DNA of 64,000 bases from an uncultured Planctomycetales bacterium (GCA_964354795.1 CAYHBB010000014.1:17249-81248), one strand, 5' to 3'. Shown: positions 2,569 to 60,700, numbered from the stretch's first letter. The notes: generated from the letters alone by a model not told the origin. Program-made: numbers and translations.

Positions 2569-2589
2569 AGGAAAGTTTACCGAAGGGCC

Positions 2590-4666: not shown

Positions 4667-4670
4667 AATT

Positions 4671-5183: not shown

Positions 5184-5196
5184 AGTATTTATCCCT

Positions 5197-17852: not shown

Positions 17853-18591
17853 CGGGGTCGAATATTCTGAATTTCATAATACCTGACTTCTGCAGCAGGA
17901 ATTGCAAAGTTGTGCCTATGACGCCAAAACCATAGGTAATACTGCGTAAGAAGGAAATTGAAGATGAGGCGCTGGTATAACGCGAAGGCGCGGTGATCTC
18001 TCCTATGCGGAACTTTCGATAAATAGCCTGCACCAGCATCTGATTATCAAAAACGAAATCATCGGAGTTCTCGGCAAGAGCAAGATCCAAAAGCACCTCC
18101 CGGGAAAACGCGCGGTAGCCGGTATGATACTCGGATATCTTCTGCCTTAGGAATATATTCTCAAAGAAAGTAAGCAGCCTGTTGGCGACATATTTATAGC
18201 CTGGCATACCGCCGCGTAGCGCCATGCCTCCCAATATTCTTGAGCCAAGCACTACATCGAACATCCCGGAAGCGATAAGCCCGACCATGGCGGTGATGAG
18301 CCTAGGAGGATACTGGTAATCCGGATGCAGCATCACCACAATATCCGCTTGGGCCTTAAGCGCCTGGCGATAGCAGGTCTTCTGGTTAGCACCGTATCCC
18401 AAATTTTGCGGGTGGACAAAAAATTTAAGATTCAGCCGGCGGGCGACATCTACGGTGCGGTCGCGGCTTGCGTCATCCACAAGAAGCACCTCATCGACCA
18501 CGCCTTTCGGTATATCGCGATAGGTTTCTTCCAGCGTCTTCTCGGCGTTATATGCCGGCAATACGACTATGACCTTTTTTCCTTCAAGCAT
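17830..18591 (-). CDS. GT2 family polyprenol-phosphate glycosyltransferase (DPM1/ArnC-like)
   Basis: 253 aa. VIVVLPAYNAEKTLEETYRDIP...VLLVDDASRDRT...DADLQ-like GT-A signature. Confidence 0.8.
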   Translation of the reverse strand: MLEGKKVIVVLPAYNAEKTLEETYRDIPKGVVDEVLLVDDASRDRTVDVARRLNLKFFVHPQNLGYGANQKTCYRQALKAQADIVVMLHPDYQYPPRLITAMVGLIASGMFDVVLGSRILGGMALRGGMPGYKYVANRLLTFFENIFLRQKISEYHTGYRAFSREVLLDLALAENSDDFVFDNQMLVQAIYRKFRIGEITAPSRYTSASSSISFLRSITYGFGVIGTTLQFLLQKSGIMKFRIFDPDGKKLIC

Positions 18592-35638: not shown

Positions 35639-36418
35639 CTATACCCTTAGATACTTACGGGACATGCCGACAATGAATAGCGGGGTAATAAAAACTCCGC
35701 AAAACGCCTCAATCATGGCAAGAGCCCTGGTAAGGCCTATTGGGTTGATATCCCCATAACCTACAGTTGTAAAAGTTATAGCGCTGAAATACATCGCGCT
35801 GAAAATGTTGGGCCGGAACACCTCATTATCAGCCTCAAGCCTGCCAAACGTATACAAAAACGCCATTGCAAAGATTATCAAGATGGCGAATAAAAACGTC
35901 CTCAGCGGCCGCTCTCCGTAACCCCAGAGCATCGCGGCAAAAGTAAGGCCCAGCCAGTGATATGTTCGCTTTAATATCTCATGCGTCCACTTCTGACCCT
36001 TGCCTGTGCTGATATTATGGATCCTCTTAGGATTAAAAATACTAAACATCAGGTACCTGCGCTGCGACTCCTTGGAAGCGTAAAAACAATCCGAATATTT
36101 CATAAACTCCATATCTTTTTCATAATTGATCGCGGCATACCTGTAGAGCAATGCGGCATACTCATAGTCCCCCGCTTTCTCCGCCTCGGATGCCGCCGAT
36201 TCGTAGGAGATAGCCGCGTTCTGGAGCGCCTTCTCCCCCTGCCTCAGCGCCCAACAGCTTGCCGCGGAAGAGAAGCATAACGACGACTCTTTATGACTGC
36301 CTGCCGCGCTGTAAAGATCACCTGCCTCGCGGAAAGCGTGAAAGGCATCCTCGTATTTTGTCTCGACTAATAAATCGTAAGCCTTCTTTTCAAATACGCG
36401 CGGGTCCTTCTTTTCCAT
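35639..36418 (-). CDS. Potassium channel family protein (2-TM pore domain with TVGYGD filter) with an N-terminal cytoplasmic helical domain
   Basis: 259 aa. C-terminal M1-pore-M2 with FSAITFTTVGYGDINP selectivity filter; N-terminal ~150 aa is helical and soluble. Confidence 0.7.
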   Translation of the reverse strand: MEKKDPRVFEKKAYDLLVETKYEDAFHAFREAGDLYSAAGSHKESSLCFSSAASCWALRQGEKALQNAAISYESAASEAEKAGDYEYAALLYRYAAINYEKDMEFMKYSDCFYASKESQRRYLMFSIFNPKRIHNISTGKGQKWTHEILKRTYHWLGLTFAAMLWGYGERPLRTFLFAILIIFAMAFLYTFGRLEADNEVFRPNIFSAMYFSAITFTTVGYGDINPIGLTRALAMIEAFCGVFITPLFIVGMSRKYLRV

Positions 36419-36421
36419 CGC

Positions 36422-38341
36422 TTAACTTTTCCTTAGGTTCGCCAACACGATAATAGTGATATCGTCATGCTGCGGCGCGCCGGCTGCAAAACGGCCGAGC
36501 TCTTCCTTTGTCATTCCCAATATTCTATCAGAAGTAGCGTTTCCGTGCTCGAAAATTATTCTTTTTACGTTCTCAGATCCAAACTCCTGGGCCTGACGGT
36601 TGCGCGCCTCGGAAAGGCCATCTGTATAAACCATTACCTTGTCGTTGGGACTTAAATCAAATGAAGCGTCAACATATTCCGTTTCATCCATTACCCCCAA
36701 AGGCATCCCGGCACCCAGCTCAATCTCCAAAACTGCGTTGCCGCCCTTACGGTAAACCAGAACCGGAGAATGTCCGGCCGAGGAGACCTGCACCTTACCT
36801 GCCTGCGGGTCGATGATCATATAAAGACAGGTGACGAACCTTCCCTCGAACTTCCCGCATAATTCTTTATTCAGACGCTCCAGCACTTCATGCGCGAAAT
36901 CATACTGAATGGCGAATACTCGAAATAGCGAAATGCTCTGGGCCATGATCAATGACGCCGGCACACCTTTGCCCGAAACGTCTCCGATAAGCACCCCCAA
37001 CTTGTTATCTTTAAGCGACAGGATATCGTACAGGTCTCCGGCAACGAATTTCGCCGGCTGCATAAAACTGGACACGGATATTCCGGAAACCTCTTTTACA
37101 TCCTTAGGAAGGAAGCTCTTCTGAATAGCCCGCGCGATATCCAGCTCTTTCTCCAAAAGCTGGCGCTTCTTGGTTTCGTTAAAAAAGCGGTAAAAAGTCG
37201 AACCGATGTAGGTAAGCGCGGTGATAAAAAGTGGCAAGAACAGGTCTACCCAGAAGCCGAAAAACACAAAAACAGCGACTGCAAAAATAAAATAGGCGCT
37301 GCCTAAGATAATGCTTGAGCCAAAAGCTCTTAAGGGCGTGAAACGCAGGCAAATAAAGAGGCTTAATGCAAAAATCAACAGATTGATAAGCGTATTCAGC
37401 AATAATCCCGCAGGCGTGATAAACCTTCCGGTCAAAAAGCTGTTTAAAACGCTTGCCTGCAGCCCAATCATGGGATAGAGATTCTCCAGCGGGGTGGGCC
37501 GGATATCGAAAGTGCCTGTAGCGGTAAGGCCGATAAAACAAACTTTATCTTTAAGGATAGATAAATCAAGCTGCGGCTTGATACCCTGCTTCTCGTCAGT
37601 ATAAGCCTTAAGAATCCCAATATACGAAAGATGCTTAAAAGATTCTCTCCATGTGCCGGGATAATTGACCATAAAGGAGCCATCCGGCAACGCCGGAAGG
37701 GAATAATTTCCGCCGATAATGATCCTGCCTCTTTTATAGACCGCGCTATTCAAGTCAAGGCCCAGCCGATCCCCGGCCACCTTAAGCGCAAGCTGCGGAT
37801 AAAGCCTGTCTTCGCATTTTATGAAAAGCGGTATCTTGCGAGCCTTGCCGTCGGGATCGACATCCGCGTTAATATAACCCACTCCCGCGCAGGATCCCTT
37901 AAAGATATCGCGCAAGTCCGCGATGACCGCGCTACTCTTTAAAGGAAAACTTCTGCCTTGCGGATTTTCAAGCGCCACCGCCATGTACACATTCCCGGCA
38001 TCTTTAATGGATTTTACAAGAGCATCGTCATAAACGGCAGGCTCGCTGAAAAGCAGGTCAAGAACAATCATTTTCACGCCTTTTTCTTTTAAAACGTCAA
38101 TAAGGCTGGCGTGAAAATCGCGCGATATCGGCCACTCCCCTAAGCTCTTAAGAGTATCGTCAGAGATCTCGACAATTACGATATCGGGGCTGGCCTTAAA
38201 AGCCGGCCTAAGCTTTAGGCGCAGGTCATAAGATATGGACTCGTAATTGTCAAAGACCCTGACCCATGAAAAAAAGAAAATCATCAGCACTGAAGCGCTG
38301 ATGACCCAGATCTTTAAAGGAATGTTTTCTAGGAATTTCAT
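36422..38341 (-). CDS. CHASE2-domain membrane sensor fused to a PP2C-type (SpoIIE/RsbU-like) serine phosphatase
   Basis: 639 aa. N-terminal TM plus periplasmic CHASE2-like domain (DIVIVEISDDTLKSLGEWPISRDFHASLIDVLKEKGVKMIVLDLLFSEP), a 4-TM region, and a C-terminal PP2C domain (GDVSGKGVPASLIMAQ...VYTDGLSEARN...). Confidence 0.8.
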   Translation of the reverse strand: MKFLENIPLKIWVISASVLMIFFFSWVRVFDNYESISYDLRLKLRPAFKASPDIVIVEISDDTLKSLGEWPISRDFHASLIDVLKEKGVKMIVLDLLFSEPAVYDDALVKSIKDAGNVYMAVALENPQGRSFPLKSSAVIADLRDIFKGSCAGVGYINADVDPDGKARKIPLFIKCEDRLYPQLALKVAGDRLGLDLNSAVYKRGRIIIGGNYSLPALPDGSFMVNYPGTWRESFKHLSYIGILKAYTDEKQGIKPQLDLSILKDKVCFIGLTATGTFDIRPTPLENLYPMIGLQASVLNSFLTGRFITPAGLLLNTLINLLIFALSLFICLRFTPLRAFGSSIILGSAYFIFAVAVFVFFGFWVDLFLPLFITALTYIGSTFYRFFNETKKRQLLEKELDIARAIQKSFLPKDVKEVSGISVSSFMQPAKFVAGDLYDILSLKDNKLGVLIGDVSGKGVPASLIMAQSISLFRVFAIQYDFAHEVLERLNKELCGKFEGRFVTCLYMIIDPQAGKVQVSSAGHSPVLVYRKGGNAVLEIELGAGMPLGVMDETEYVDASFDLSPNDKVMVYTDGLSEARNRQAQEFGSENVKRIIFEHGNATSDRILGMTKEELGRFAAGAPQHDDITIIVLANLRKS

Positions 38342-38344
38342 CGG

Positions 38345-39358
38345 TTAGAAAATATACTGCCAACCGCAGTTGACCATACTTTCTGAATACAGCTCGAAAA
38401 GATCATTAGAGGCGTTTTGCCGGTAGGTGTAATAGACAGTCAGAAGATTATGCTTATTCAACTTCTGAGTAATACCAATATTACCCGAGTATAAACCGTC
38501 AACTTCCTTATAATCACCGTTGGTGATCAGGCGGGTAGTATAGAGCTTTCTCATATAGGAGAAGTCAGTGAAGAATAAAGTATTTTTGAGTAGCTTATAT
38601 TCCGCGCGCGCGGTCTGGGTATAGGATTTATAATCATAAAAATCCTGATACTTGGCATTTGAGTTATTGATAGCGAAACTGGATCTTGAGGAAAGCTTTA
38701 ATTTCTTGGTCAGTTGGCTTGAGATCTTATACTCTACGTCAAACCTGCGGTCAGCGCGGGTCTTATCCTGAAGGCTGCCGAGAGTATCCCCCATGGCCAA
38801 ACCATCAGTAAAATCCTTGTATCCGTAATAAAACTGCAGGCGATGATAGGTACGCTTGCTTATGTCCTGCGTCAGGAAGATGTAGCCTTTATGGAAGAGA
38901 AATGTGCTGTCTTCGTTTTTCGGGTAATAGAAAATACCCAGGTCGTAGCCGGTGCCGAGAGTGAATTTACCAAACTTCTTGGTTGGCCCAAGGCGGAAAT
39001 GATTCAGAATATTGGAGGCGTCGGTAATACGGTTGTAATTGAGGGCGTCCAGGTCGTAATCAAAAGTAAACTTAAAGCCGTCGCCCATCGGCTTGGCAAC
39101 GCTTAAGGAAAACATCATCTCCTCAAAGGTATCGCCTTTTCTATTGCTGGTGAGCTTGACGTTGCTGTCATAGCCGCCGAATGTAGCGGCAGTAGCGTAG
39201 ATTTTAAAGCCAGGCTGTGGCTTATACAGTTTTTTTGATTCTAAGAGGGTTTTTTCCTCTACTGCATCCTTTAGCTGAGACTGGGCAAAGGCGCTGCCAG
39301 CAAAAAGAAAAGAAATTATCAGAAAAAAGCTTAAAGATTTAATGATATTCTCGCGCAA
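38345..39358 (-). CDS. Putative outer-membrane beta-barrel protein
   Basis: 337 aa. Signal peptide, alternating-hydrophobic beta-strand pattern, aromatic C-terminus ...GWQYIF typical of OMPs. Confidence 0.45.
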   Translation of the reverse strand: MRENIIKSLSFFLIISFLFAGSAFAQSQLKDAVEEKTLLESKKLYKPQPGFKIYATAATFGGYDSNVKLTSNRKGDTFEEMMFSLSVAKPMGDGFKFTFDYDLDALNYNRITDASNILNHFRLGPTKKFGKFTLGTGYDLGIFYYPKNEDSTFLFHKGYIFLTQDISKRTYHRLQFYYGYKDFTDGLAMGDTLGSLQDKTRADRRFDVEYKISSQLTKKLKLSSRSSFAINNSNAKYQDFYDYKSYTQTARAEYKLLKNTLFFTDFSYMRKLYTTRLITNGDYKEVDGLYSGNIGITQKLNKHNLLTVYYTYRQNASNDLFELYSESMVNCGWQYIF

Positions 39359-39370
39359 CTTTAATCCTCC

Positions 39371-40189
39371 TTATGGTAATTTGGTGACAGAATAACCTTC
39401 AGTCTCCGTGCCGCCGACTGACTCTTGGGTGGTTTCCTCTCTGGTTTCCTGATTTTCCTCACGCTGCTCCTGAGCGATCTCTTCGCGATAATTCTCTCTT
39501 CCCTCATCGCGCAGATCCTGCAAAGCCCCGCGCTCGCCGGCACCATCCCCTTGATCCACTACATCCCCTCCGAGATCTCCGACATTATTCGTAAAATCAT
39601 TCCACTCGGCGCGAGCATCATCGCCAAGCTCAAAAGTATCACCAAGTCTTCCTCCGGCACCTACCTCCAGGCCAAACCCGCTGTCCAGGTCCTCTTCATC
39701 GGTAATATTTCCGTTAGCATCCAGGCCCTGCACATACACCGTATCCTCAAAACAAGAAACCGAAGAATCTCCGTTATTATTGCCCGTCTCCCATCCCGTG
39801 GCCCGCGCTCCGGCAACCGCTGTCGGAGTCTTGATCTGGAACTTCTCCACCTGTTTTAAGTTTTTGATAAGAGTAAAAACTCTGCCCTGCGCAAGATTTA
39901 CTATTCCCGGCTTAAGGCTATCAATACGTATCTGAGAATTTTCCTTCACCGTCACGATATTTTTAAGATCCTCGTCAAATGCCAGAGTACATTCCGCGCC
40001 AGCTTTAGTCTGGACTTGCGCAGCCTTATCCAGGGTGAGATTCTTTTTGGCGTCCTGCCAGTCGCTAACAGCGTTCTTCTTCACCATGACTTCACCCTTA
40101 AAGTCAATGATCTTAGCTGTCTGAGCAAAGACACATACTGGAAAAAGTAATAATAAAGCTAAAATTAAAATTAGAAAATATTTCTTCAT
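39371..40189 (-). CDS. Secreted FecR-domain-like protein with an acidic Asp/Glu/Gly-rich low-complexity C-terminal tail
   Basis: 272 aa. Signal peptide. IIDFKGEVMVKKNAVSDWQDAKKNLTLDKAAQVQTKAGAECTLAFDEDLKNIVTVKENSQIRI resembles the FecR/LipL45 beta-sandwich. C-terminal ~100 aa are D/E/G-rich. Confidence 0.4.
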   Translation of the reverse strand: MKKYFLILILALLLLFPVCVFAQTAKIIDFKGEVMVKKNAVSDWQDAKKNLTLDKAAQVQTKAGAECTLAFDEDLKNIVTVKENSQIRIDSLKPGIVNLAQGRVFTLIKNLKQVEKFQIKTPTAVAGARATGWETGNNNGDSSVSCFEDTVYVQGLDANGNITDEEDLDSGFGLEVGAGGRLGDTFELGDDARAEWNDFTNNVGDLGGDVVDQGDGAGERGALQDLRDEGRENYREEIAQEQREENQETREETTQESVGGTETEGYSVTKLP

Positions 40190-40234
40190 CGTAGACCTCC
40201 CTAATTACTCCGCGAAGGCGGAGGAATCAACCTA

Positions 40235-40879
40235 TTATTTCTTCGCCGGCGGCTTTTCCTTGGTCTTGATCAGGACCTTCCATGGATGCCGCTTTATATC
40301 GTCACTGAATTCTTCGAAATTCTTTGAGGTGGCCTCAAGATTCTTAACTATCTGAGACACGCTGCCCTTATTATCCTCAACAGTGCTATTTAAGTTGATC
40401 ACCAGTTTATTCACCTGAGTCGAGATATCCCTGGTCATGATCTGAGCCTGCTCCAAAAGCGCGTCAATATCCATGTAAGGCTTGCCCTTCAATGTCGCGC
40501 CGGGCTTTAAAAATTCCTTATTGCCAACAGAGGATATCTGGATGAATTTCTCACCCATTAAGCCAAGAGTCTTAATGGAAGCTATCCCGTCCTCACGCAC
40601 CTTAGCTTTATCATCCAACCACAGCTTAAGGGTGATAGCGGTGCCGGCGTCGTCATAAAGGATATCAATGTCGTCGACTTTGCCCACTTCAAGACCGTTA
40701 AGCATCACCGGAGCCTTTTCCTCAAGTCCGGCGATATCATTAAATACAACATAGATATTATAGCCGCCTTTTTTCATGTTGGACTTATTGCTTGAAAATA
40801 TCAGATACCCAAGGCCAAGCAGGCACAATACCACAAACAACCCCACTTTAAACTCATTATTGAAATTCATCTTTTTCAT
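40235..40879 (-). CDS. mlaD: MCE-domain protein MlaD
   Basis: 214 aa. N-terminal TM, MCE domain (YNIYVVFNDIAGLEEKAPVMLNGLEVGKVDDI). Confidence 0.8.
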   Translation of the reverse strand: MKKMNFNNEFKVGLFVVLCLLGLGYLIFSSNKSNMKKGGYNIYVVFNDIAGLEEKAPVMLNGLEVGKVDDIDILYDDAGTAITLKLWLDDKAKVREDGIASIKTLGLMGEKFIQISSVGNKEFLKPGATLKGKPYMDIDALLEQAQIMTRDISTQVNKLVINLNSTVEDNKGSVSQIVKNLEATSKNFEEFSDDIKRHPWKVLIKTKEKPPAKK

Positions 40880-40924
40880 ATTGATCCTTTCTCAATTCCT
40901 CGCTTTTCCAATCCGGGGCAAATA

Positions 40925-41734
40925 TTATAGCCCAAGGGCCTGAATAATGCCTATATCTTCTTTAAAGAAATCTATCGGGCCTTCCGGCTTGCCGTTGATG
41001 AACTGCTGAATGTAAAGATTCTTAGAATTACGGATCTCATCCGGTGTGCCCACCTCGACGATCTTGCCCTTATGCACCATGGCGATCCTGTCGCTAATGG
41101 CGAATACGCTTTGCATATCGTGAGTCACCACCACAGAAGTGATGCAAAGCTTGACGCTCAAGTCTTTGATCAGATGGTCGATCACGCCGCCTACTACCGG
41201 ATCAAGCCCCGAAGTCGGCTCATCGTAAAATACTATATCAGGGTCCAATGCAATGGCACGCGCCAGGCCGACACGCTTTCTCATACCGCCTGATATCTGT
41301 GAAGGAAAATACTTCTCGTATCCGCGTAAACCCACCAGAGAAAGCTTCATCTTAATAATGATATCGATGATCTCATCGGCTAATTTAGTGTGCTCTTTGA
41401 TGGGAAGGGCAACGTTATCTTCTACGGAAAGCGAATCCAGAAGCGCTGAATACTGGAAGGTCATGCCAAAACCTTTCTTTACCTCATCCAGCTGGGCCTC
41501 GGAAATGCTTGCGATATCCTTGCCCTTGATCAGGACGCTGCCCTCTTCCGGACGCAAAGCGCCGGTCATCAGGCGTAGCAGCGTGCTCTTGCCCGAGCCG
41601 GAACAGCCCATAATGACAAATGTCTCTCCGGAATAAATATCCAGGTTGACGTTATCAATGATCTTATTCCCCTGGAAGGACTTGGAAACGTTGCGCAAAG
41701 ATATAATAGGATCGATTTTAATGGCTTCGCTCAT
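40925..41734 (-). CDS. mlaF: ABC transporter ATP-binding protein MlaF. The ORF extends to 41770, but the likely start is at 41734 (ATGA coupling with mlaE).
   Basis: Walker A GCSGSGKST, signature ISGGMRKRVGLARA, Walker B IVFYDEPTSGLD. Confidence 0.9.
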   Translation of the reverse strand: MSEAIKIDPIISLRNVSKSFQGNKIIDNVNLDIYSGETFVIMGCSGSGKSTLLRLMTGALRPEEGSVLIKGKDIASISEAQLDEVKKGFGMTFQYSALLDSLSVEDNVALPIKEHTKLADEIIDIIIKMKLSLVGLRGYEKYFPSQISGGMRKRVGLARAIALDPDIVFYDEPTSGLDPVVGGVIDHLIKDLSVKLCITSVVVTHDMQSVFAISDRIAMVHKGKIVEVGTPDEIRNSKNLYIQQFINGKPEGPIDFFKEDIGIIQALGL

Positions 41735-42522
41735 ACTTTTGAGAAATAGAAAAACGCGGTTAAAATACAATCGGCCAGGATTATCAGGATAAAACTGATG
41801 ACCACGCTTCGGGTGGTCGCCCTTCCCACGCCCTCTGCTCCGCCGCGGGTATTGAGGCCCTCGAAACAGCCGATAAGCGCGATGATCACCGCGAACACCC
41901 CTGACTTGATCAAACCCGTATAGATATCTTTACACTTAAGATATTTGAATGTGGTCTGGAAATACAGATCGGTATTGATATGCAGGGTGCCGTTTCCGAC
42001 TATGTATCCTCCGATGATGCCTGCGATATCTCCGAGAATTGTTAGACACGGCAACATCAGCAATAAAGCAAGGAACCTGGGGACAGCCAGGAACCTCACC
42101 GGGTTGATGGCCATGGTGTCGAGTGCTTCGATCTGCTCGCTGACTTTCATGGTGCCCAGCTCCGCGGCGATCGCCGAGCCCACGCGGCCGGCCACCACCA
42201 ACGCGGTCAAGACCGGGCTGAGCTCACGGCACAAGGCGATGGCAACAAGCGCTGCCACGTAAATGCCCGCGCCCATCTTCTCAAATTGATACGCGGTCTG
42301 CATGGCGATAACGATACCGGTGAATATATCTACAAAGAAAACGATGATGATGGAGCGCACGCCCACAAAACTCATCTGGTAGAAGATTGCCTCACGGTGC
42401 GCGGCCTTTCCCTTAAACGGGCCGATAAAGGTCCAGTAAAGGATGTCCATGAAAAGGATGATCACGCCCTTTACCCACTTCATATAATCTATGACGAATT
42501 TTCCCAGCGAGTTGATCATCAA
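41731..42522 (-). CDS. mlaE: ABC transporter permease MlaE
   Basis: 263 aa, 5-6 TM helices, MlaE/Ttg2B family features (QTAYQFEKMGAGIYVAALVAIALCRELSPVLTALVVAGRVGSAIAAELGTMKVSEQIEAL). Confidence 0.9.
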   Translation of the reverse strand: MMINSLGKFVIDYMKWVKGVIILFMDILYWTFIGPFKGKAAHREAIFYQMSFVGVRSIIIVFFVDIFTGIVIAMQTAYQFEKMGAGIYVAALVAIALCRELSPVLTALVVAGRVGSAIAAELGTMKVSEQIEALDTMAINPVRFLAVPRFLALLLMLPCLTILGDIAGIIGGYIVGNGTLHINTDLYFQTTFKYLKCKDIYTGLIKSGVFAVIIALIGCFEGLNTRGGAEGVGRATTRSVVISFILIILADCILTAFFYFSKV

Positions 42523-42851
42523 AAATCCTTTAACGCGTTCTCCTGCGTATCGAATATCTCAAATAGCTTGTGCAACTTAGTGATCTCAAATACGTTCTTG
42601 ATTTTCTGCTCCATGCTGCAAAAACGCAAGCGCCCGCCGATCTTTTTCAGGCGCTGAAACATCTCTATCAGCGTAGCCAGGCCGGAGCTGTCGATATAGG
42701 TGACTCCTGAAAAGTTCACCGCCAGTTTCTTCTCGTTCTTAGCAATGATCCCATCAAAAGCTTTACGCAACTCAGGAGAATTATTTATATTGACCTCGCC
42801 TTCCAGAAAACAGACTACCGCGCCACCGATCCGCTCTTCTCTGATCTTCAC
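42519..42851 (-). CDS. STAS-domain anti-sigma-factor antagonist (SpoIIAA/RsbV-like; possible MlaB-equivalent)
   Basis: 110 aa. LAVNFSGVTYIDSSGLATLIEMFQRL with the DSSGL phosphorylatable-Ser motif. 4-nt overlaps with both neighbours. Confidence 0.85.
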   Translation of the reverse strand: MKIREERIGGAVVCFLEGEVNINNSPELRKAFDGIIAKNEKKLAVNFSGVTYIDSSGLATLIEMFQRLKKIGGRLRFCSMEQKIKNVFEITKLHKLFEIFDTQENALKDF

Positions 42852-43261
42852 TTTTTACCCCCGTTTTTTAGGAATTTAACCATCTTTATGGTGCGGCCAC
42901 AATCGGAATGTTCAACTTTATCCATCAGCGTTTTGATCAAAAATACCCCCCGGCCATGATTCTTCTCCAAGTTGCTCTTCTCGGTAGGGTTAGGTATCTT
43001 GGTATAATCATATCCCTGGCCCCGGTCCCTTACCTGGATGATCAAACTGTCGCCGGTTATCTCAGCCTCTACCTCTATATGGTGCTCCAGGCTGAATTTA
43101 TTGCCGTGCTTGATGGCGTTAATCAGCGCTTCGTCAAGGCACAGTTTAATGTCAAACAGCTCTTCCTTTGAAAGCCCGGATTTTTCTAATTTTTCTATTA
43201 CCTCCAGGACAAACTGTGGGATCATCTCCAGGCGGGAAGGCAATTTTTCAAAAATATGCAT
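42848..43261 (-). CDS. Anti-sigma regulatory factor-type Ser/Thr kinase (RsbW/SpoIIAB-like HATPase_c)
   Basis: 137 aa. N-box LDEALINAIKHG, G1 RDRGQGYD, G2 HGRGVFLIKTLMD. Confidence 0.8.
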   Translation of the reverse strand: MHIFEKLPSRLEMIPQFVLEVIEKLEKSGLSKEELFDIKLCLDEALINAIKHGNKFSLEHHIEVEAEITGDSLIIQVRDRGQGYDYTKIPNPTEKSNLEKNHGRGVFLIKTLMDKVEHSDCGRTIKMVKFLKNGGKK

Positions 43262-43267
43262 TATGTT

Positions 43268-43471
43268 TTATTTCTTATCAGTCAACTTCTCAGCGATGAT
43301 AGCCAACAGATATAGCGCTATGCCGCAAAATAAACCCTTGGCCAGAAAATACCAGGGGATAGGCTCATTCTCAAACTTACCCTCAAACACTCCATTTCCT
43401 AAAAGAAATGAATAAACACAGATAAGAAAAATAATAATCGAAGCGAAAGAAGCAATTTTTGTGATTTTCAT
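43268..43471 (-). CDS. Small two-TM membrane protein
   Basis: 67 aa, two hydrophobic helices; no recognisable family. Confidence 0.3.
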   Translation of the reverse strand: MKITKIASFASIIIFLICVYSFLLGNGVFEGKFENEPIPWYFLAKGLFCGIALYLLAIIAEKLTDKK

Positions 43472-43546
43472 TTTTACCTCCCTTTAATTTTTGGTTGGTA
43501 TATTATACCACAAATTCATACAGAGAAATATATTTTCGACCCCAAT

Positions 43547-52325: not shown

Positions 52326-55300
52326 TTAAGCGGGAATCTTACGCGAATCTTTAACTTCTAGCATCTTGTGATATTCCTGCAGCGATTTGGGCAAATCATG
52401 CTTTTTCTTCACTGAATCGATCCCGTCCACCGTTGCCCGGGCCGCGGCCATAGTAGTCACGTAGGGGATCTTATGCTGGATAGCAAGCATGCGGATATAG
52501 CTGTCGTCATGGACGCTCATCCTGCCGATAGGAGTATTAATGATCAGGTTGATCTCCTTATTCTTTATGGTATCGGAGATATTCGGCCTGCCCTCGTGCA
52601 ACTTCTTGACCAGAGTGGAATCCACTCCCTTTTCCTTAAGGTATCGATGAGTGTTTTCCGTAGTAAAGATCTTAAATCCCAATTGCACTAACTTTGAGGC
52701 TATCGGGAAAAGATTCTGCTTGTCCTTATCCGCTACCGTGATCAAAACATTTCCCTCAAGGGGAAGTTTGGTGCCCACTGACTCTTGAGCCTTATAAAAC
52801 GCCACCCCGAAATCCTCGCCTATGCCCATCACCTCTCCGGTTGCCCGCATCTCGGGGCCCAAAATCGGATCGACTTCCGGGAACATGTTGAAAGGAAACA
52901 CCGCTTCTTTAACCGTGACATATGGGATCTTACGCGAAATCAGCTCCGTAAAGTCGCTGATCTTTTTGCCCAGTATAAGTTGAGTGGCAATGCGCGCCAG
53001 CGGGATACCCATGGTTTTCGCCACCAGCGGCACAGTGCGGGAAGCGCGCGGATTGGCTTCCAGTATATAAACCTGATCATCGCAAATGGCGTATTGAATA
53101 TTGATCAGGCCCACCACTTTTAACTCCACCGCGATTTTTTTCGTCCACTCGTCAATGGTCTTTAAGTGCTCTTGCTTGATGCTGCGCGAAGGAATAGTAC
53201 AGGCAGAATCCCCGGAGTGGATCCCCGCGTGCTCAATATGCTCCATCACCGCGGCCACAAACGTATCTTTGCCGTCGCAAAGCGCATCCACCTCGCATTC
53301 AATAGCATTATCCAGGAAACGGTCGATCAGCATAGGATACTCGGGTGAGACCTGTATCGCCTCTTTGGCGTATTTGGTGAGCATCTTCTCATCGTAAATC
53401 ACTTCCATACCGCGGCCGCCCAAAACAAACGAAGGCCTGACCATCGCCGGATAGCCAATTCTACCGGCAATAGCAATCGCCTCATCCAGGGAGCCCGCCG
53501 TGCCTCCTTCGGTCTGTCGGATGCCCAACGCTATCATCTTCTGCCTGAACAACTCGCGGTCCTCAGCAAAAGCGATTGATTTAGTGCTTGTGCCGATGAT
53601 CTTCACTCCGTTTTTCTCAAGCTCCGCGGCGATATTCAAAGGCGTCTGGCCGCCGAACTGCACGATCGCCCCAATCGGCTTTTCCTTTTCCCATATCGTT
53701 AGGACATCCTCAACCGTCAATGGCTCAAAATAAAGCTTATTTGACGTATCGTAATCAGTCGAGACTGTCTCAGGGTTACAGTTGATCATGATGGTTTCCA
53801 ACCCCGCATCACGCAGGGCAAAAGCCGCATGCACACAGGTATAATCAAACTCAATACCTTGTCCGATACGATTCGGCCCGCCGCCCAAGATCAATATTTT
53901 CTTATTACCGGAAACCGGGACCAGGTCCTCACCCGAAGTATAAGTGGAATAATAATACGCGGCATCTTTCACGCCGCTGACCGGCACAGGTTCAAAACGA
54001 GCGTTGCCCATCAGCTTCTTCCTTCGGCCGCGCACATCCGCCTCTTTTACCTTAAATATCTTGGACAAATATCTGTCGCTGAAGCCCCACTCCTTGGCTT
54101 TACGCAAACTCGCATCCGACAGCCCCTGCCACCCGGTGGCCAGCATATCCTGTTCAAACTCCACCATCTCTTTCATTTCTTTGATAAACCACTTACCGAT
54201 AAAGGTAAGACTGTAAAGCTCCTCTACGCTAGCGCCCTTGCGCAGCGCTTCATACATCAGGAACACGCGCTCGCTGGATGGATTTACCAGCCGAGACTTC
54301 AGCTCTTCCAAAGACAGACTGTTGAAATCTTTGGCAAACCCCAAACCATATCTTCCGGTCTCAAGCGAGCGGATAGATTTCTGGAACGCTTCCTTGAATG
54401 ACTTGGAAATGCTCATCACCTCACCCACTGCCTTCATCTGCGTGCCCAGGACATCTTTTGCCTGGCGGAATTTCTCAAAGGCCCAGCGCGCGAATTTGAT
54501 CACTACATACTCACCCCACGGCTCGTATTTCTCTAAGGTCCCTTTTCTCCAGTAAGGCATTTCATCGAGGGTAAGGCCCGCGGCTAATTTCGTGGAGACG
54601 CGAGCAATGGGAAAACCCGTGGCCTTGGAAGCCAAAGCCGAAGAGCGCGAAGTGCGGGGATTTATTTCTATAGCCACCACGCGGTCATCCTTAAGATTAT
54701 GCGCGAACTGAATATTTGTCCCCCCCACCACACCGATAGCATCCACGACCTTGTAGGAATAATCCTGCAGTCTTTTCTGCAACTCCTGAGGCACGGTAAG
54801 CATGGGAGCAACGCAAAAACTGTCTCCGGTATGCACGCCCATGGCGTCGATATTCTCGATAAAACAGACGGTGATCTTCTGGTTCTTCTCGTCGCGCACC
54901 ACCTCAAGCTCCAACTCCTCCCAGCCGATGACCGCTTCTTCGATCAGCACCTGATGTATAATGCTGGCGTTGAGCCCGCGGTTGACAAGAGTAGAGAAAT
55001 CTTCGTTATTATAGGCGATACCTCCACCGGTCCCGCCCATCGTATAAGCCGGACGGATGACCACCGGATAGCCCAGTTCCTGCGCCGCCTTCTGGGCCTC
55101 CTCTAAAGTATTGCAGGTCTGCGAGCGCGGCACAGGGATACCCAGTTTTTTCATGGTATCCTTGAACGCCTCGCGGTCTTCTCCTCTTTCAATGGCATCA
55201 GCTTTTACGCCGATGATCTTGACCCCGAATTTATCCAACACTCCCGTCTTATGCAAAGCAGAAGACAGGTTCAATCCGGTCTGGCCGCCCAAATTAGGCA

Positions 55301-55559
55301 GTAGCGCATCCGGCCGCTCTTTCTCGATTATCTTAGTCAGGCTCTCAACGGTAAGCGGCTCAATATAGGTGTTATCCGCCATACCTGGATCGGTCATAAT
55401 GGTCGCGGGATTGGAATTCACCAACACGATCTCATACCCCTCCTCACGCAGCGCCTTACAAGCCTGGGTACCGGAATAATCGAATTCACAGGCCTGCCCT
55501 ATGATGATGGGGCCTGAGCCGATGATTATTACTTTTTTGATGTCTGTACGTTTCGGCAT
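52326..55559 (-). CDS. carB: Carbamoyl-phosphate synthase large subunit
   Basis: 1077 aa. Two ATP-grasp halves, oligomerisation domain, MGS-like C-terminal domain. Confidence 0.97.
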   Translation of the reverse strand: MPKRTDIKKVIIIGSGPIIIGQACEFDYSGTQACKALREEGYEIVLVNSNPATIMTDPGMADNTYIEPLTVESLTKIIEKERPDALLPNLGGQTGLNLSSALHKTGVLDKFGVKIIGVKADAIERGEDREAFKDTMKKLGIPVPRSQTCNTLEEAQKAAQELGYPVVIRPAYTMGGTGGGIAYNNEDFSTLVNRGLNASIIHQVLIEEAVIGWEELELEVVRDEKNQKITVCFIENIDAMGVHTGDSFCVAPMLTVPQELQKRLQDYSYKVVDAIGVVGGTNIQFAHNLKDDRVVAIEINPRTSRSSALASKATGFPIARVSTKLAAGLTLDEMPYWRKGTLEKYEPWGEYVVIKFARWAFEKFRQAKDVLGTQMKAVGEVMSISKSFKEAFQKSIRSLETGRYGLGFAKDFNSLSLEELKSRLVNPSSERVFLMYEALRKGASVEELYSLTFIGKWFIKEMKEMVEFEQDMLATGWQGLSDASLRKAKEWGFSDRYLSKIFKVKEADVRGRRKKLMGNARFEPVPVSGVKDAAYYYSTYTSGEDLVPVSGNKKILILGGGPNRIGQGIEFDYTCVHAAFALRDAGLETIMINCNPETVSTDYDTSNKLYFEPLTVEDVLTIWEKEKPIGAIVQFGGQTPLNIAAELEKNGVKIIGTSTKSIAFAEDRELFRQKMIALGIRQTEGGTAGSLDEAIAIAGRIGYPAMVRPSFVLGGRGMEVIYDEKMLTKYAKEAIQVSPEYPMLIDRFLDNAIECEVDALCDGKDTFVAAVMEHIEHAGIHSGDSACTIPSRSIKQEHLKTIDEWTKKIAVELKVVGLINIQYAICDDQVYILEANPRASRTVPLVAKTMGIPLARIATQLILGKKISDFTELISRKIPYVTVKEAVFPFNMFPEVDPILGPEMRATGEVMGIGEDFGVAFYKAQESVGTKLPLEGNVLITVADKDKQNLFPIASKLVQLGFKIFTTENTHRYLKEKGVDSTLVKKLHEGRPNISDTIKNKEINLIINTPIGRMSVHDDSYIRMLAIQHKIPYVTTMAAARATVDGIDSVKKKHDLPKSLQEYHKMLEVKDSRKIPA

Positions 55560-57750: not shown

Positions 57751-60700
57751 CTACTTCCCTTTATGCGATAGGCAAGTATTGATTTTCTCAATGTAGAGAA
57801 GTATTTCTTTTCGGGCTAGCCCATAAATTTTCTGGTCAAGCAGGCTTGTCAAAAACTCACTCATCTCTTTTCTATTCCCATACACCCCCATATCTATGAC
57901 AATATCCCGCTGTGTCTCGGGATCCTGTCCGGGAAACAATCTTTTTAGCATTGAAAAAGCGCTTTCTGTATTCATCTGGATAAGCGATTGAAAATAACTT
58001 CTTTTGATCTCCCGGTCATTGTTTTGAATAGCTTTTTCATAAAGAGGAAGCTGCTGTTCATCTTTTATCCTTTTCATTATATCCAAGGCAAGCAATACCC
58101 TCTTCTGTGCCCCTGAATCAATAAGCATTTCTATGAAAGGCGCGGTTTCGGTTTTAAATTCCTTAAGTATATCCAGCAATTCCAGGTTCTGCAGGTACCA
58201 TTCGAAAAGCAGCGAGCTCGATTGCCTTGTTTCCAATGTCTCAATAAAATAAAGGATCCCTTCCGGCATCATCTTTTTAAAGAGGGAGATGACTAAAGCA
58301 TTCTTGCTGGCATCAAAGGCGACTTCATCAAGAATACTTGCTAGTTGAGCGCATAGAGAAAATATGTCTATGCCTTTCAGGGCTTCTTTAGCCGGTTGCC
58401 TCCTCCAGATAAACCCTCCCGAAGCGTTAAGGTCTTCTTTTAGCGTAGAGATGACCCTATAGATATCCCAATAATTGCTGAGTTCCTGTAAGCGAGAAAT
58501 AATTGCCCCCGCATCCATTGCAAGCGATTCATAAGCTTGCTGATCATTTTCAACATGGAGCGCCTGAAGAAAAAGAGCAGTGATTCTTTTCATGTAAAAA
58601 TCCGCAAGGTGCGCGGGAATGATCTTTATGATCTCCGACAAGGTAACGGCCGTATATATCTTTGCTTCCAGCTCGCTGCTTTGTAAATTCAAAAGATATT
58701 TATCCAAAATCTGCTCTGCAAGAGCGCTTTCATTTATTACAAAAAGTTCATTAAGGGTGGGTTTAAGATTTTCTATGACCCCCATAGCCAGAATGGTCCG
58801 GGGATCAGCGTTCAGGTATGTGTTGGCTCTCTTGATCACAGGATAGCGCAGAAAATCATGGGAATCGATAAGCCACGTAAAGCAGACATCCGACATCCCC
58901 AAATTTATCAGGGCATCTTTCAATTTTACGGCGATTGTTTCTTTTTGTTGGGAATCTTTCAGGCATACCTTGACCATTTCCCTAATATCCAAGATCGCTG
59001 TTATATGGCGGCGGTATTCATCAGTAATTACCTCCACCAGCACGTCCGGCGAGAAATGGGAGATCGATTTGGCAAAAAGATCTGTTTCCGCTTCATCGAA
59101 AACCTTTAATTTTTTGATGACCTTGGTCTCTTCTTTCTCGTCACCAACCTTAGCGCCACCTTCCTTCGGCAGGGGAATAGCCTCTCCGATAGCTCTTTTT
59201 ATCATGAATTCCTTGATGAATTCCTTATGCAGCTGCCTCTTTTCTTCTTCGGAATAGACTTTTTTGTAGAGCACCTCATCGATATTTATGGCGTTGATCT
59301 TATGATCAAGGAGGATCTTTTTCCATTGTTCCTTTTTTTCCATCGATAGTTTGGGATTAGAAAGAAGGCCGATAAATGCCTTGATCTCATCAGCCAAGAC
59401 AGTACGATGAAAAGTAATGCTTCCGATATTAGCCATGCTCATAATGGCAAGGATAGTCTTTGTAAGTATATCTTCCGACTGGAATGACCGATGGAGTTCC
59501 TGCCCGTTTATCAAAAGCTTGATATCTCCGGATGGACAGCTAAAGGTAAGTATATGGTGGGCCGTAAAAAATTCTTTAAAGCATCTGGCCAAACTATAGA
59601 CCATCTTAGTGGTGATCTCATTAGGCATCTGGTACATCTGCATACTTTTTATCGCTGAATTAAAAGAGCTGATGATCTCCATTATCAGCGGCCAGGTCTC
59701 TTTTTTTATCGGCTCATGGCGCTCCTTCTCTTCCCGGTCGTTAATGGCATTTTCGATGACCTTTTCCGCCTCCACGCTTGAAAAAAGGTTTTCGATATAG
59801 ACGACCGCCTGATGGGCATAGTTTTTTGTCTTAGCTTCAAGATTTGCCTTGTTGAAATGGAAGGCTAGCTCCGAGCTTATCTCTTCGGTATTATTCTTGA
59901 ATTCATGCTCAAGGGTGGTAGCGATATCAAGGTGGATCTTTTTTTTCTGCTCGGTATCGATGCTCTCATAAAGAACCGAACGCAGGGAATCGTTATTGAA
60001 GAAAACCTCGTCTTCGGCCTGATTTTCTCCGAGCTTTAGGATATTTTTTTCTGAGACGCGGGAAAGGATATCCTGCAGGTGCCCGTGGTTTATTTTTTTA
60101 AGCTTAGAAAGAAAATCAAACTTAAGGTTACTCCCTATGCCGGAAACAGCCAAAAGCAATTCTTTTTCTTCGGCCCCTAGGTTTTGCAACTTGCTGATAA
60201 GCAGCTCCCTTAAGTCTCTTGGAAGCCGGCCTGTGTCAATTTGGAATACCCAATGAGGATATTGTAGATAAATGTTTTTCCTGTCCCAAAGGTATTGTAT
60301 TAACTCGACAATGAAAAGGGGGCTGCCTTCGGTAGCGCCGAAGAGTTCGCTGGTGAATCTTTCAGGGATATCATGGCCGCTAAAAATTCCCTTTATGACT
60401 TCTCTGGTCTCTGCCTGGTCAAAAAACGGCAGGGTTATGTGGGGCACGATCTCAAACTCCGAGATCTCCGACAGCAGCGAATCAAGAGCTGAATCGCTAT
60501 CGTGCGTTTTTGAAGACGGGTGGCTGGTGCTTCCTAATAGGACAAAAGGAGTCTGTTTTTTAGACAGGATTATGAAACTAAATATTTCTGAGCTTGCGGT
60601 ATCGATCCAATCAAGATTGTCCACGATAATAAGCGGATTTATCTGGGTGAATATGCTTTCGCAAAGGTCCGCAAGCCCGTGGAATAGATTGAGCCTCACC

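Follow-up and report, generated by a model that had tools for sequence, protein, structure and literature searches.

Gene content and organization of the locus

On the minus strand of a 64-kb stretch of DNA (the window), between positions 35639 and 43261, we identified by Pfam searches and by reading of the gene junctions nine tightly coupled genes, all present in the order K-S-E-F-D-R-O-P-C: an RsbW-like kinase (K), a STAS protein (S), the permease MlaE (E), the ATPase MlaF (F), the MCE protein MlaD (D), a FecR-domain protein (R), an outer-membrane barrel (O), a CHASE2-PP2C phosphatase (P) and a K+ channel (C) (Table 1). A preliminary description of this DNA had already proposed nine coupled minus-strand genes, with a kinase, a STAS protein and a PP2C phosphatase among them, and both proposals hold: the three proteins have the expected Pfam domains and intact motifs, and the junctions range from a 4-nt overlap to a 45-nt gap. 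The kinase and STAS genes overlap by 4 nt (GTGA), the stop codon of the STAS gene overlaps the mlaE start by 1 nt (TGATG; 4 nt with a TTG start) and mlaE overlaps mlaF at ATGA, while the remaining gaps measure 45 nt (F/D and D/R), 12 nt (R/O) and 3 nt (O/P and P/C). No second STAS protein, RsbW-like kinase or PP2C was found in the window. At the DNA level the window is approximately 90% identical to a Candidatus Omnitrophota MAG (L007).

Table 1. Features of the locus, in order of transcription (positions in the 64-kb window).
Feature	Position	Strand	Evidence and remarks
Promoter-like extended -10 (TGgTATAAT)	43501..43512	-	Consensus match only, read from sequence; upstream of small ORF and operon
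Small protein, 67 aa, two predicted membrane helices	43268..43471	-	Strong RBS (GGGAGG); stop 6 nt before kinase ATG
RsbW/SpoIIAB-like serine kinase, 137 aa	42848..43261	-	Pfam HATPase_c_2, 3.8e-28
RsbV/SpoIIAA-type STAS protein, 110 aa	42519..42851	-	Pfam STAS, 3.1e-21
MlaE permease	41731..42522	-	Pfam MlaE, 4.5e-82; NCBIfam TIGR00056, 260.9 bits vs cut-off 212.2
MlaF ATPase, 269 aa, SGGM signature	40925..41734	-	Pfam ABC_tran, 6.2e-32 (ORF 40925-41770)
MlaD (MCE) protein, short, 214 aa	40235..40879	-	Pfam MlaD, 3e-18
FecR-domain secreted protein, acidic C-terminal part	39371..40189	-	Pfam FecR, 1.2e-8; signal peptide
Outer-membrane beta-barrel, 14-strand, BBP2_2-like	38345..39358	-	AlphaFold2 pLDDT 82; no Pfam match
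CHASE2-sensor PP2C (SpoIIE/RsbU-type) phosphatase, 639 aa	36422..38341	-	Pfam CHASE2, 2.6e-47; SpoIIE, 4.4e-46
K+ channel, TVGYGD, soluble N-terminal domain of ~150 aa	35639..36418	-	Pfam Ion_trans_2, 2.3e-14

The small ORF that precedes the kinase gene has neither a Pfam nor an NCBIfam match, and its homologues are found only in the closest relatives (L007, L008 and L013); it may be the first, lineage-specific gene of the operon. The promoter-like element is located in the 285-nt gap after a DUF3137 gene.

The core of an MlaFED transporter is encoded in one operon, namely MlaE, an SGGM-type MlaF ATPase and an MCE-domain MlaD, the latter with NCBIfam MlaD/MCE matches that fall below cut-off. 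Translation of MlaF likely starts at the ATG at 41734 and not at the TTG at 41770; the top hits in the PDB are MlaF from A. baumannii, P. aeruginosa and E. coli (2.8e-69 to 3.4e-58), and its C-terminal extension ends in the helix FFKEDIGIIQALGL. MlaC and MlaA had no Pfam match among the scanned ORFs of the window, in agreement with MlaABC being mostly confined to Proteobacteria.

The kinase and the STAS protein

The kinase has the features of the RsbW/SpoIIAB type, i.e., a HATPase_c_2 domain, an N-box (E..NA..HG) and G-boxes (D.G.G and GRG) that are conserved in an alignment of 72 orthologues, a length of around 140 amino acids and a gene beside, or fused to, that of a STAS protein. It stays below equivalog level in NCBIfam, with 60.7 and 66.8 bits for the RsbW models (cut-offs 155 and 145) and 48 bits for the SpoIIAB model (cut-off 135).

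In the STAS protein we noticed the motif Y52-I-D-S55-S56-G-L, in which Ser55, at the start of helix alpha2, is the predicted phospho-acceptor; the stretch YIDSSGLAT is invariant, with D54-S55-S56-G57 kept in alignments of 34 and of 80 orthologues. Sequence matches in the PDB are TM1442, SpoIIAA and RsbV, and the NCBIfam model TIGR00377 (ant_ant_sig) is matched with 75.2 bits, above its cut-off of 53.45. The AlphaFold2 model (pLDDT 91.5) superposes on TM1442, SpoIIAA and TM1081 with TM-scores of 0.81-0.86, and on RsbV with approximately 0.77-0.85.

We also considered whether this protein is an orthologue of MlaB. The respective NCBIfam model (NF033618) scores it at 24 bits, below the cut-off of 90, and the predicted structure contains the C-terminal beta5 (residues 98-100) and alpha4 (residues 103-107), whereas MlaB is a minimal STAS protein without both elements. 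MlaB is absent from the top 50 structural matches of the model, and the profile-to-PDB match to MlaB has an E-value of about 1e-3, restricted, for E. coli MlaB, to alpha2-alpha3. By sequence and fold the protein is thus of the RsbV/SpoIIAA type and not an MlaB orthologue; as with MlaB, its gene is located within the mlaFED operon, here directly upstream of mlaE.

RsbW/SpoIIAB kinases usually have a cognate sigma factor encoded in the same operon, and none was found here. No Sigma70 domain was detected by Pfam in the scanned ORFs of at least 130 amino acids across the window, and a phmmer scan with sigma factor probes covered a 1077-aa ORF (52326-55559). A group-3 sigma factor is absent from the window and from 86 related loci, in which the sigma factors seen are RpoD (twice) and one ECF sigma factor, at differing positions. 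The absence of a sigma factor claimed in the preliminary description is therefore borne out for the ORFs of the window and, as regards group 3, for the related loci.

Conservation in Omnitrophota and beyond

A search for co-occurrence of these genes in other genomes revealed that the arrangement is no one-off. Every one of 80 non-redundant Omnitrophota loci from GTDB (one per species) shows the order K-S-E-F-D where the contig allows it to be read, with flanking genes that differ. The median S-to-E junction in these 80 loci is 2 nt, and the stop and start codons of the STAS gene and mlaE overlap in most of them. The kinase gene adjoins the STAS gene upstream in 73 of the 80 loci, and in four more the two are fused in frame, at least three of the fusions being independent. 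Alongside this STAS-anchored set we ran a metagenome scan anchored on MlaE and blind to STAS, which retrieved a STAS gene directly upstream of mlaE in 59/64 loci and both kinase and STAS genes in 42/47; linkage to mlaE thus amounts to 100% in the STAS-anchored and 92% in the MlaE-anchored set. More than 130 independent contigs, which stem from many samples and were built with many assemblers, have this same gene order. These data support the kinase/STAS/phosphatase module as a conserved, co-inherited part of the MlaEFD operon in more than 100 Omnitrophota loci. A single SAG contig (L052/L053) is chimeric, with a palindromic structure.

Outside the main clade, STAS-MlaEFD was identified in three divergent lineages with other MlaD types; the kinase is present in two of these loci (L095 and L097) and no kinase gene is adjacent in two others (L091 and L096). 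Since STAS-MlaEFD recurs with and without the kinase, the STAS protein, and not the kinase, is the constant Mla partner. The nearest STAS relatives outside Omnitrophota lie in ordinary S-K-PP2C clusters without Mla genes (L092). In mirror-tree comparisons the STAS protein has its strongest partial correlations with MlaF (0.29) and with the kinase (0.27), which is weak evidence, F-D, a non-contacting pair, also reaching 0.25; those of the kinase with MlaE, MlaF and MlaD range from 0.05 to 0.11 (0.05 for both K-E and K-D). Of the five core proteins, the kinase shows the lowest conservation, with a median identity of 43%.

Presence of the STAS protein and the C-terminal helix of MlaF

Five MlaEFD loci, spread over at least three separate lineages, lack the STAS gene, and they also lack the kinase and the phosphatase. 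In four of the five the C-terminal helix of MlaF is missing, and the STAS-bearing sister loci keep the C-terminal tail. Overall, the helix is found in 111 of 114 loci with STAS versus one of four without it (Fisher p = 2.9e-4, uncorrected for phylogeny and based on four or five STAS-less loci). The kinase/STAS/phosphatase module is gained and lost together, and its absence coincides with that of the MlaF C-terminal helix.

For the E. coli proteins it has been described that the helix of the MlaF C-terminal extension (CTE) docks in the MlaF/MlaB groove, that Thr52 of MlaB, the equivalent of Ser55, occupies the middle of the interface between MlaF and MlaB, and that the T52E replacement weakens binding (PMC7367683). 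The extension is not specific to MlaB, since Veillonella MlaF has a short CTE though there is no MlaB. MlaFED operates without any STAS protein in most bacteria (PMC10665443), and STAS is therefore dispensable for transport as such.

The CHASE2-PP2C phosphatase, its probable accessories and the K+ channel

The phosphatase is of the RsbU/SpoIIE type, with metal-binding aspartate motifs and an N-terminal sensor, and its motifs GDVSGKG, YTDG and DDIT are all present. Among the 47 loci with at least 7 kb of downstream sequence, its gene is located in the same cluster in 41 and is not within 10 kb in six.

Genes for the FecR-domain protein and the barrel accompany the phosphatase gene in 33/41 loci and are absent from the loci without it (0/6). 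The preliminary description had listed both as parts of the Mla operon; as they are found solely alongside the phosphatase gene, they are better read as travelling with the CHASE2 sensor, and are probably its accessories rather than Mla components. FecR-CHASE2 adjacency has been described in Burkholderia and Pseudomonas (PMC5192318). The barrel protein carries a signal peptide and ends in ...YIF, with phenylalanine as the last residue; its model matches CymA, OmpG and FadL in Foldseek (TM 0.5-0.6), its homologues carry PF10082, and the median O-to-P gap across loci is 5 nt. The K+ channel, previously described as a member of the operon, is indeed co-transcribed here, its gene following directly after that of the phosphatase, yet it is no core component: among 49 loci that contain the phosphatase gene, 10 show this placement, all of them members of the closest clade, and the channel is specific to the closest relatives.

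A putative phospho-switch acting on the transporter

The kinase, the STAS protein and the phosphatase co-occur, are in part fused (kinase-STAS) and are gained and lost together; their presence in an Mla operon, with no sigma factor nearby, suggests that phosphorylation switches the transporter itself. Based on gene content, intact catalytic motifs and evolutionary coupling, we hypothesize, with somewhat better than even confidence, that these loci encode a lipid ABC transporter of the MlaFED type that has a phospho-switch of its own, in which the binding and gating steps are inferred. Like MlaB in E. coli, the unphosphorylated RsbV-like STAS protein would bind MlaF at its helical subdomain, and the C-terminal helix of MlaF would pack against this pair, which would set transporter assembly or ATPase activity. 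The RsbW-like kinase would phosphorylate Ser55 at the centre of the interface, or sequester the STAS protein, either of which would free it from MlaF, and the membrane-bound CHASE2-PP2C would dephosphorylate the phosphorylated STAS protein upon an extracytoplasmic signal; in most lineages the barrel in the outer membrane and the FecR-like protein in the periplasm, both encoded in the operon, probably relay this signal. The output of these steps would therefore be post-translational control of envelope lipid transport and not transcription.

Alternatively, this could be a conventional partner switch whose target, such as a sigma factor, diguanylate cyclase or other regulator, is encoded elsewhere, and the mla genes would be merely co-transcribed as part of the same envelope-stress response. 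HsbA, SypA and BtrV are examples of partner switching that bear on unlinked targets. Such targets are known for Gram-negative partner switches (reviewed in PMC8256260), the kinase and the STAS protein are RsbW- and RsbV-like in sequence and fold, and the Mla-free clusters of the closest non-Omnitrophota STAS relatives fit as well. We nevertheless regard this explanation as unlikely, given the K-S-mlaE order with its stop/start overlap in most loci, the linkage to mlaE in both sets, the kinase-less STAS-MlaEFD of L091 and L096, the joint absence of the module and of the tail helix from MlaF and the lack of a group-3 sigma factor in any of the 86 loci. The L091 and L096 loci also speak against a switch centred on the kinase, which, acting on the transporter as an anti-sigma factor does on sigma, would bind and inhibit MlaF or MlaE until unphosphorylated STAS protein, by sequestering it, frees the transporter. 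In canonical partner switching it is in fact the kinase that contacts the output (RsbW-SigB, SpoIIAB-SigF), and kinase, STAS protein and phosphatase are all present and intact here; the E. coli precedent, however, is STAS-MlaF and not kinase-MlaF, the residual co-variation of the kinase with the transporter proteins is low compared with that of the S-F pair, and the kinase is the least conserved core protein, so that we give this possibility still less credence.

That the STAS protein is a constitutive, MlaB-like structural subunit, with the kinase and phosphatase acting on other substrates or loosely associated, appears improbable: the DSSG acceptor motif is invariant, kinase-STAS gene fusions exist, the three switch proteins are present and absent together and the catalytic motifs of the kinase and the PP2C are conserved. 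It would be compatible with the requirement of E. coli MlaB for MlaF stability, with MlaB phosphorylation not being known, and with lineages in which STAS-MlaEFD has no adjacent kinase or phosphatase. Chance adjacency or an assembly artefact is effectively refuted by the identical order in the independent contigs, even though the loci derive from MAG, SAG and metagenome assemblies, with the palindromic contig mentioned above among them.

If the phospho-switch proposed here is correct, envelope lipid transport would be turned on and off by protein phosphorylation of a transporter partner and not by control of transcription, and the Omnitrophota operon makes the open question of MlaB regulation directly testable.

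Comparison with known systems

We found no published description of a kinase/STAS/CHASE2-PP2C switch in an Mla operon. With E. coli MlaFEDB (Thong et al., 2016, PMC5016091; Kolich et al., 2020, PMC7367683) the locus shares MlaE, an SGGM-type MlaF with a C-terminal extension, a short MlaD, a small STAS protein encoded in the operon, a Ser/Thr residue where MlaB has Thr52 and the co-occurrence of the MlaF terminal helix with STAS. The Omnitrophota STAS protein is of the full-length RsbV/SpoIIAA type, whereas MlaB is minimal (Kolich et al., 2020). Its gene precedes mlaE, whereas mlaB is at the end of the E. coli operon, and, unlike in E. coli, neither MlaC nor MlaA was seen in the window. The locus also differs in encoding its own kinase and phosphatase, and we know of no described Mla system that does so.

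The Bacillus switches RsbU-RsbV-RsbW-SigB and SpoIIE-SpoIIAA-SpoIIAB-SigF likewise combine a PP2C, a phosphorylatable STAS protein with the DSSGL acceptor motif (fold similarity TM ~0.85) and a GHKL serine kinase. In contrast to them, a sigma gene is missing from the operon and its vicinity, the kinase gene precedes the STAS gene (K-S, compared with S-K-sigma), the phosphatase carries CHASE2 as its membrane sensor and ABC transporter genes follow the STAS gene. Partner switches whose output is not sigma include Vibrio fischeri SypE-SypA, Pseudomonas HsbR-HsbA, Bordetella BtrU/V/W and Chlamydia RsbU/V/W; in these, as proposed here, the phosphorylation state of the STAS protein is read by an output other than a linked sigma factor, and, to our knowledge, no ABC or MCE transporter has been described as a target of any of them. 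A review of partner switching has no mention of MlaB or lipid transport (PMC8256260).

In the Burkholderia BiofilmReg and P. aeruginosa PA4035-like operons (PMC5192318) a secreted FecR-domain protein is also encoded beside a CHASE2 membrane sensor; there, however, the output domain is a histidine kinase and not a PP2C, and in our locus a 14-strand barrel gene lies in between and a LysM domain is absent from the FecR protein. The SLC26/SulP transporters, in which the STAS domain and a secondary transporter form one polypeptide that is not part of a kinase/phosphatase switch, resemble the proposed system in that a STAS fold regulates a membrane transporter.

Gene content and organization of the operon

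All nine genes attributed to the operon in the preliminary description were recovered, by Pfam matches, translations and, for the outer-membrane barrel, an AlphaFold2 model, and their characteristic motifs are intact (see the table). The tight coupling proposed for these genes is also observed: the kinase/STAS, STAS/mlaE and mlaE/mlaF junctions are overlaps (GTGA, TGATG and ATGA, respectively) and the remaining gaps are of 45, 45, 12, 3 and 3 nt. The mlaF gene likely starts at the ATG at 41734, overlapping the stop codon of mlaE, and not at the TTG of a longer ORF. The small ORF upstream of the kinase gene is preceded by an extended -10-like sequence (TGgTATAAT), recognized by its resemblance to the consensus, and is kept only in the nearest relatives (loci L007, L008 and L013). 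The operon is flanked by unrelated housekeeping genes, coding for DUF3137, LemA, PIG-L and M48 peptidase proteins upstream, and for rplM, rpsI and arginine and lysine biosynthesis downstream; no second STAS, kinase or PP2C gene was found in the window.

The MlaD protein resembles that of E. coli in being short, a type described as almost restricted to Proteobacteria (Grasekamp et al.), and the window yielded neither MlaC nor MlaA.

Features of the operon and of related loci (coordinates are those of the window or of the locus named)
Feature	Sequence	Coordinates	Strand	Length (aa)	Basis and remarks
Operon, nine genes in the same direction	window	35639-43261	-		Pfam and translations
RsbW-like kinase, HATPase_c_2	window		-	137	Pfam
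STAS protein	window		-	110	Pfam; YIDSSGL in translation
MlaE	window		-		Pfam
MlaF, ABC ATPase	window		-		Pfam; SGGM in translation
MlaD	window	40235-40879	-	214	Pfam
FecR-domain protein	window		-		Pfam; signal peptide in translation
Outer-membrane barrel	window		-		no Pfam match; signal peptide; 14-strand beta-barrel by AlphaFold2
CHASE2 + SpoIIE/PP2C protein	window		-		Pfam; motifs GDVSGKG, YTDG, DDIT
Ion_trans_2 (K+) channel	window	35639-36418	-		Pfam; TVGYGD
Small ORF	window	43268-43471	-	67	two predicted membrane helices; strong RBS; 6 nt upstream of kinase gene
Segment missing in L007	window	38477-40234			corresponds to L007 12766-12782
Kinase-STAS fusion	L018	4907-5656			
Kinase-STAS fusion	L057	9557-10333			
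Kinase-STAS fusion	L058	607-1347			
Kinase-STAS fusion	L084	9593-10333			
Second STAS paralogue	L003	16276-16665			adjoins the module

Type of the STAS protein

By sequence and by predicted fold, the STAS protein is of the anti-sigma-factor antagonist type. It scores above the cut-off of the antagonist family model TIGR00377, and its sequence matches in the PDB are TM1442, SpoIIAA and RsbV (E 4e-19 to 2e-12), against a match to MlaB of 24 bits, or E ~1e-3. Its AlphaFold2 model (pLDDT 91.5) superimposes on TM1442, SpoIIAA, RsbV and related antagonists with TM 0.77-0.87 and retains beta5 and alpha4, the elements absent from MlaB, a minimal STAS (Kolich et al., 2020; PMC7367683). The protein is therefore no orthologue of MlaB, and any MlaB-like function would represent a separate recruitment of a STAS protein.

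Conservation within Omnitrophota and beyond

We identified 335 close homologues of the STAS protein, those with a named source being labelled Candidatus Omnitrophica. A scan of GTDB, with one genome per species, detected a relative in 370 species. The best 80 were examined as non-redundant loci; nearly all of these are labelled Omnitrophota, with some uncultured Planctomycetes and a few named just 'bacterium'. The kinase gene is immediately 5' of the STAS gene in 73 of the 80 loci and fused to it in frame in a further four, its position falling beyond the contig end in the remaining three. mlaE is the next gene after STAS in 78/80, the other two being contig ends, and the median gaps are of 1 nt (kinase-STAS), 2 nt (STAS-mlaE) and 3 nt (mlaE-mlaF). 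A CHASE2-PP2C gene is present in the cluster in 41 of the 47 loci with at least 7 kb of downstream sequence. Since the neighbouring genes differ between loci, the module itself is the conserved unit. The initial scan was anchored on STAS, and we therefore repeated it in metagenomes with MlaE as the anchor: a STAS gene is directly 5' of mlaE in 59 of the 64 loci where 400 nt or more precede mlaE, and kinase and STAS are both present in 42 of the 47 where 900 nt or more do. The co-occurrence of kinase, STAS, mlaEFD and CHASE2-PP2C genes, for which the preliminary description proposed a search, is thus no one-off; it extends across the phylum and forms a coherent whole.

The four kinase-STAS fusions (246-258 aa), each in a different species, represent at least three independent events, and similar fusions (243-260 aa) occur among the database representative proteins (P0168, P0181, P0200, P0219, P0236 and P0261). 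No fusion of STAS to MlaE or MlaF was found among the 150 best representatives, whose long matches are multi-STAS or kinase-STAS proteins.

To look beyond the main clade, we searched 1.8 billion representative proteins with a profile and then inspected the genomic context of matches. Besides additional operons of the Omnitrophota type (L087-L090), we identified STAS-MlaE-MlaF-MlaD (407 aa), with neither kinase nor phosphatase genes within 8 kb, in a MAG labelled Planctomycetota (L091), and, in a further lineage, kinase-STAS-MlaE-MlaF-MlaD (332 aa)-ABC_trans_aux (L095 and L097), with the identical gene set minus the kinase in their relative L096. Identity to the window proteins is ~50% for MlaE and MlaF and 33-46% for STAS, and DSSGIATLVE is kept in the STAS protein of all four loci. 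The association of STAS with MlaEFD, with or without a kinase, therefore recurs across a deep divergence.

A second STAS paralogue was noticed in several loci. It is more divergent and lies just 3' of the phosphatase gene, on the minus strand, in L065, L067, L073 and L082; it is located upstream of the kinase gene in L011, L019, L044 and L045, and adjoins the module in L003. This paralogue could serve the kinase and the phosphatase as an extra substrate, or compete for them. One single-amplified genome (AM-311-K22, contig JBHPFV010000032.1; L052/L053) carries the operon twice, inverted, as a palindrome, in all likelihood a chimera produced when the single-cell genome was amplified.

The C-terminal helix of MlaF and loss of the STAS gene

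The window ATPase is a true MlaF. It has a C-terminal extension ending in an amphipathic helix, FFKEDIGIIQALGL, also referred to as the FFKEDIGIIEALGL helix, and more distant MlaF orthologues have the tail FFQQKDDYLEQLTK, which resembles GDYHADLL of E. coli. In E. coli, the corresponding helix (Tyr261, Leu265 and Leu266) inserts in the groove between MlaF and MlaB, and MlaB Thr52 lies centrally in the interface, its T52E substitution weakening binding (Kolich et al., 2020; PMC7367683). Ser55, the predicted phospho-acceptor of the window STAS protein, occupies the position equivalent to Thr52.

Among the 118 loci with complete mlaF, the tail is present in 111 of the 114 with STAS, and MlaF ends right after GPIxxG in three of the four without it (Fisher p = 2.9e-4, uncorrected for phylogeny and with only these four STAS-less loci). 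MlaF likewise ends after GPIxxG in L178, also STAS-less, so that the terminal helix is missing in four of the five STAS-less MlaEFD operons of the same family (L127, L133, L163, L173 and L178). Neither kinase nor phosphatase genes were found within 6 kb in these five loci, i.e. the components of the switch are co-lost as they are co-inherited. In the MlaF tree, the STAS-less loci are placed in at least three positions, with nearest neighbours having both STAS and the C-terminal tail. This link between STAS and the helix suggests what the latter is for. In mirror-tree partial correlations, STAS is, as expected, most correlated with MlaF (0.29), followed by the kinase (0.27), but this evidence is weak, since the non-contacting pair MlaF-MlaD reaches nearly as high a value (0.25).

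The FecR-domain protein, the barrel and the K+ channel

The barrel model (pLDDT 82) has CymA, OmpG and FadL as its nearest structures, and homologues of the protein bear PF10082 (BBP2_2). The FecR-domain and barrel genes, proposed as members of the Mla operon, are indeed part of it in the window, but they track the phosphatase gene and not Mla: they were observed in 33/41 loci with phosphatase and in 0/6 without it (p = 2.8e-4), and the median gap between barrel and phosphatase genes is 5 nt. FecR-domain proteins also adjoin CHASE2 sensors in Burkholderia and Pseudomonas (PMC5192318). On the grounds of this restriction and precedent, we interpret both proteins as belonging to the CHASE2 sensor, as accessories that may relay a signal from the outer membrane, rather than to the lipid path. 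A role as a bridge from MlaD to the outer membrane was considered and rejected, both being present only in loci with phosphatase, absent in 14/47 MlaEFD loci and missing in L007. The latter, with ~90% DNA identity to the window, lacks exactly the FecR gene and all but the last ~130 nt of the barrel gene, which remain before the phosphatase gene, and keeps everything else; this gap, with clean ends, is either a recent deletion or a difference in MAG assembly. In nine other loci (L031, L034, L035, L129, L151, L153, L158, L164 and L167), the FecR-domain gene is repeated in tandem, with 2-4 copies separating mlaD from the barrel gene.

The K+ channel gene, judging from its 3-nt gap, is predicted to be co-transcribed with the phosphatase gene. 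It stands as the ninth gene of the window operon but is not a general component, as it follows the phosphatase gene in 10 loci, of the closest clade only. The N-terminal domain of the channel is soluble, with ~150 aa, and has no Pfam match.

Putative regulation of the lipid transporter

The components described here are of known kinds, namely an RsbU/V/W-type switch, an MlaFED core and a FecR-CHASE2 pair; precedents also exist for a STAS protein that acts on MlaF, in the form of MlaB, and for partner switches whose output is not a sigma factor. We know of no established regulation of Mla/MCE lipid transporters, nor of cultured model organisms in the phylum Omnitrophota. We propose that unphosphorylated STAS would bind MlaF and set transporter activity, that the kinase would release it from MlaF by phosphorylating Ser55 or by sequestering STAS, and that the CHASE2-PP2C protein would reset STAS upon an envelope signal. 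Three indirect lines bear on whether STAS acts on the transporter: the lack of a linked sigma factor, the joint absence of STAS, kinase and phosphatase, and the correlation of STAS with the MlaF tail. This explanation, as a whole, is the one towards which we lean. By analogy with the stabilisation of MlaF by MlaB, binding of STAS would more likely activate than inhibit the transporter. A fuller relay can be envisaged, in which the barrel and the periplasmic FecR-like protein would report the envelope state to the CHASE2 sensor, its PP2C domain would remove the phosphate from the RsbV-type STAS, STAS would dock on MlaF together with the MlaF C-terminal helix, switching lipid transport, and the RsbW-like kinase would reverse this docking. 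That these four steps jointly provide post-translational control of MCE/Mla in Omnitrophota and some related lineages, as an envelope-to-cytoplasm phospho-relay, is a plausible but tentative proposal.

The same genes could also form a partner switch with an unlinked target, and near relatives of the STAS protein occur in ordinary STAS-kinase-GAF-PP2C clusters without Mla (L092, Gemmatimonadota). Another near relative adjoins dnaG-rpoD (L093). Nevertheless, as the preliminary description had it, no sigma factor accompanies the operon: no Sigma70 domain was detected in the scanned window ORFs of at least 130 aa, and SigF, SigB, RpoD and RpoE probes identified none in the window or adjoining the operon. 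The same scan of the window and 86 loci gave no group-3 sigma factor, its hits being two RpoD (L063 and L068, 322-325 bits) and one ECF sigma (L022), at unrelated positions, which served as positive controls. We regard an unlinked target as rather unlikely. A kinase-centred variant, in which the kinase that accompanies STAS in most loci would itself bind the transporter, seems more doubtful still, because the kinase is missing in L091 and L096 while STAS stays, making STAS, not the kinase, the constant member. A constitutive, MlaB-like role could suit such kinase-less loci; in these operons, however, the STAS protein carries a canonical acceptor serine and is encoded together with a dedicated kinase and a phosphatase that senses the envelope, and we consider this role very improbable.

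Phospho-regulation of MlaB "remains to be determined", the question having been raised for Thr52 once MlaFB was solved (Kolich et al., 2020; PMC7367683), and a phylogenomic survey found MlaB to be mostly proteobacterial and left kinases unmentioned (PMC10665443). Our literature search returned nothing relevant on a partner switch in an Mla operon, phosphorylated MlaB or regulation of Mla in Omnitrophota, and no description of the combination of switch and Mla operon. If STAS does act on MlaF as we propose, it would provide the first natural example of a phospho-regulated MlaB, proposed but never found in E. coli, and the first partner switch with an ABC transporter as its output, extending partner-switching from transcription to direct transporter control and suggesting that the state of the outer membrane and lipid transport are linked by feedback in Omnitrophota. 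The operons supply a defined set of proteins in which the idea of MlaB phospho-regulation can be tested in vitro.

Other features of the window and of related contigs

The window also contains type IV pilus/type II secretion genes (850-6747; ATPase, secretin and PilM/N/O-like), a second, short secretin-like gene (61693-62496) and two GGDEF proteins, one of which (57751-61638; 1295 aa) includes an AAA_16 domain. An unusually high AT skew (0.27) was observed at 16001-18000, over a 549-aa ORF without Pfam match and a PMT_2 glycosyltransferase gene, a probable consequence of T-rich coding sequence for membrane proteins on the minus strand. In a related Omnitrophota contig (L005, 1766-4765), GyrA carries an intein (PF14890 inside DNA_topoisoIV).
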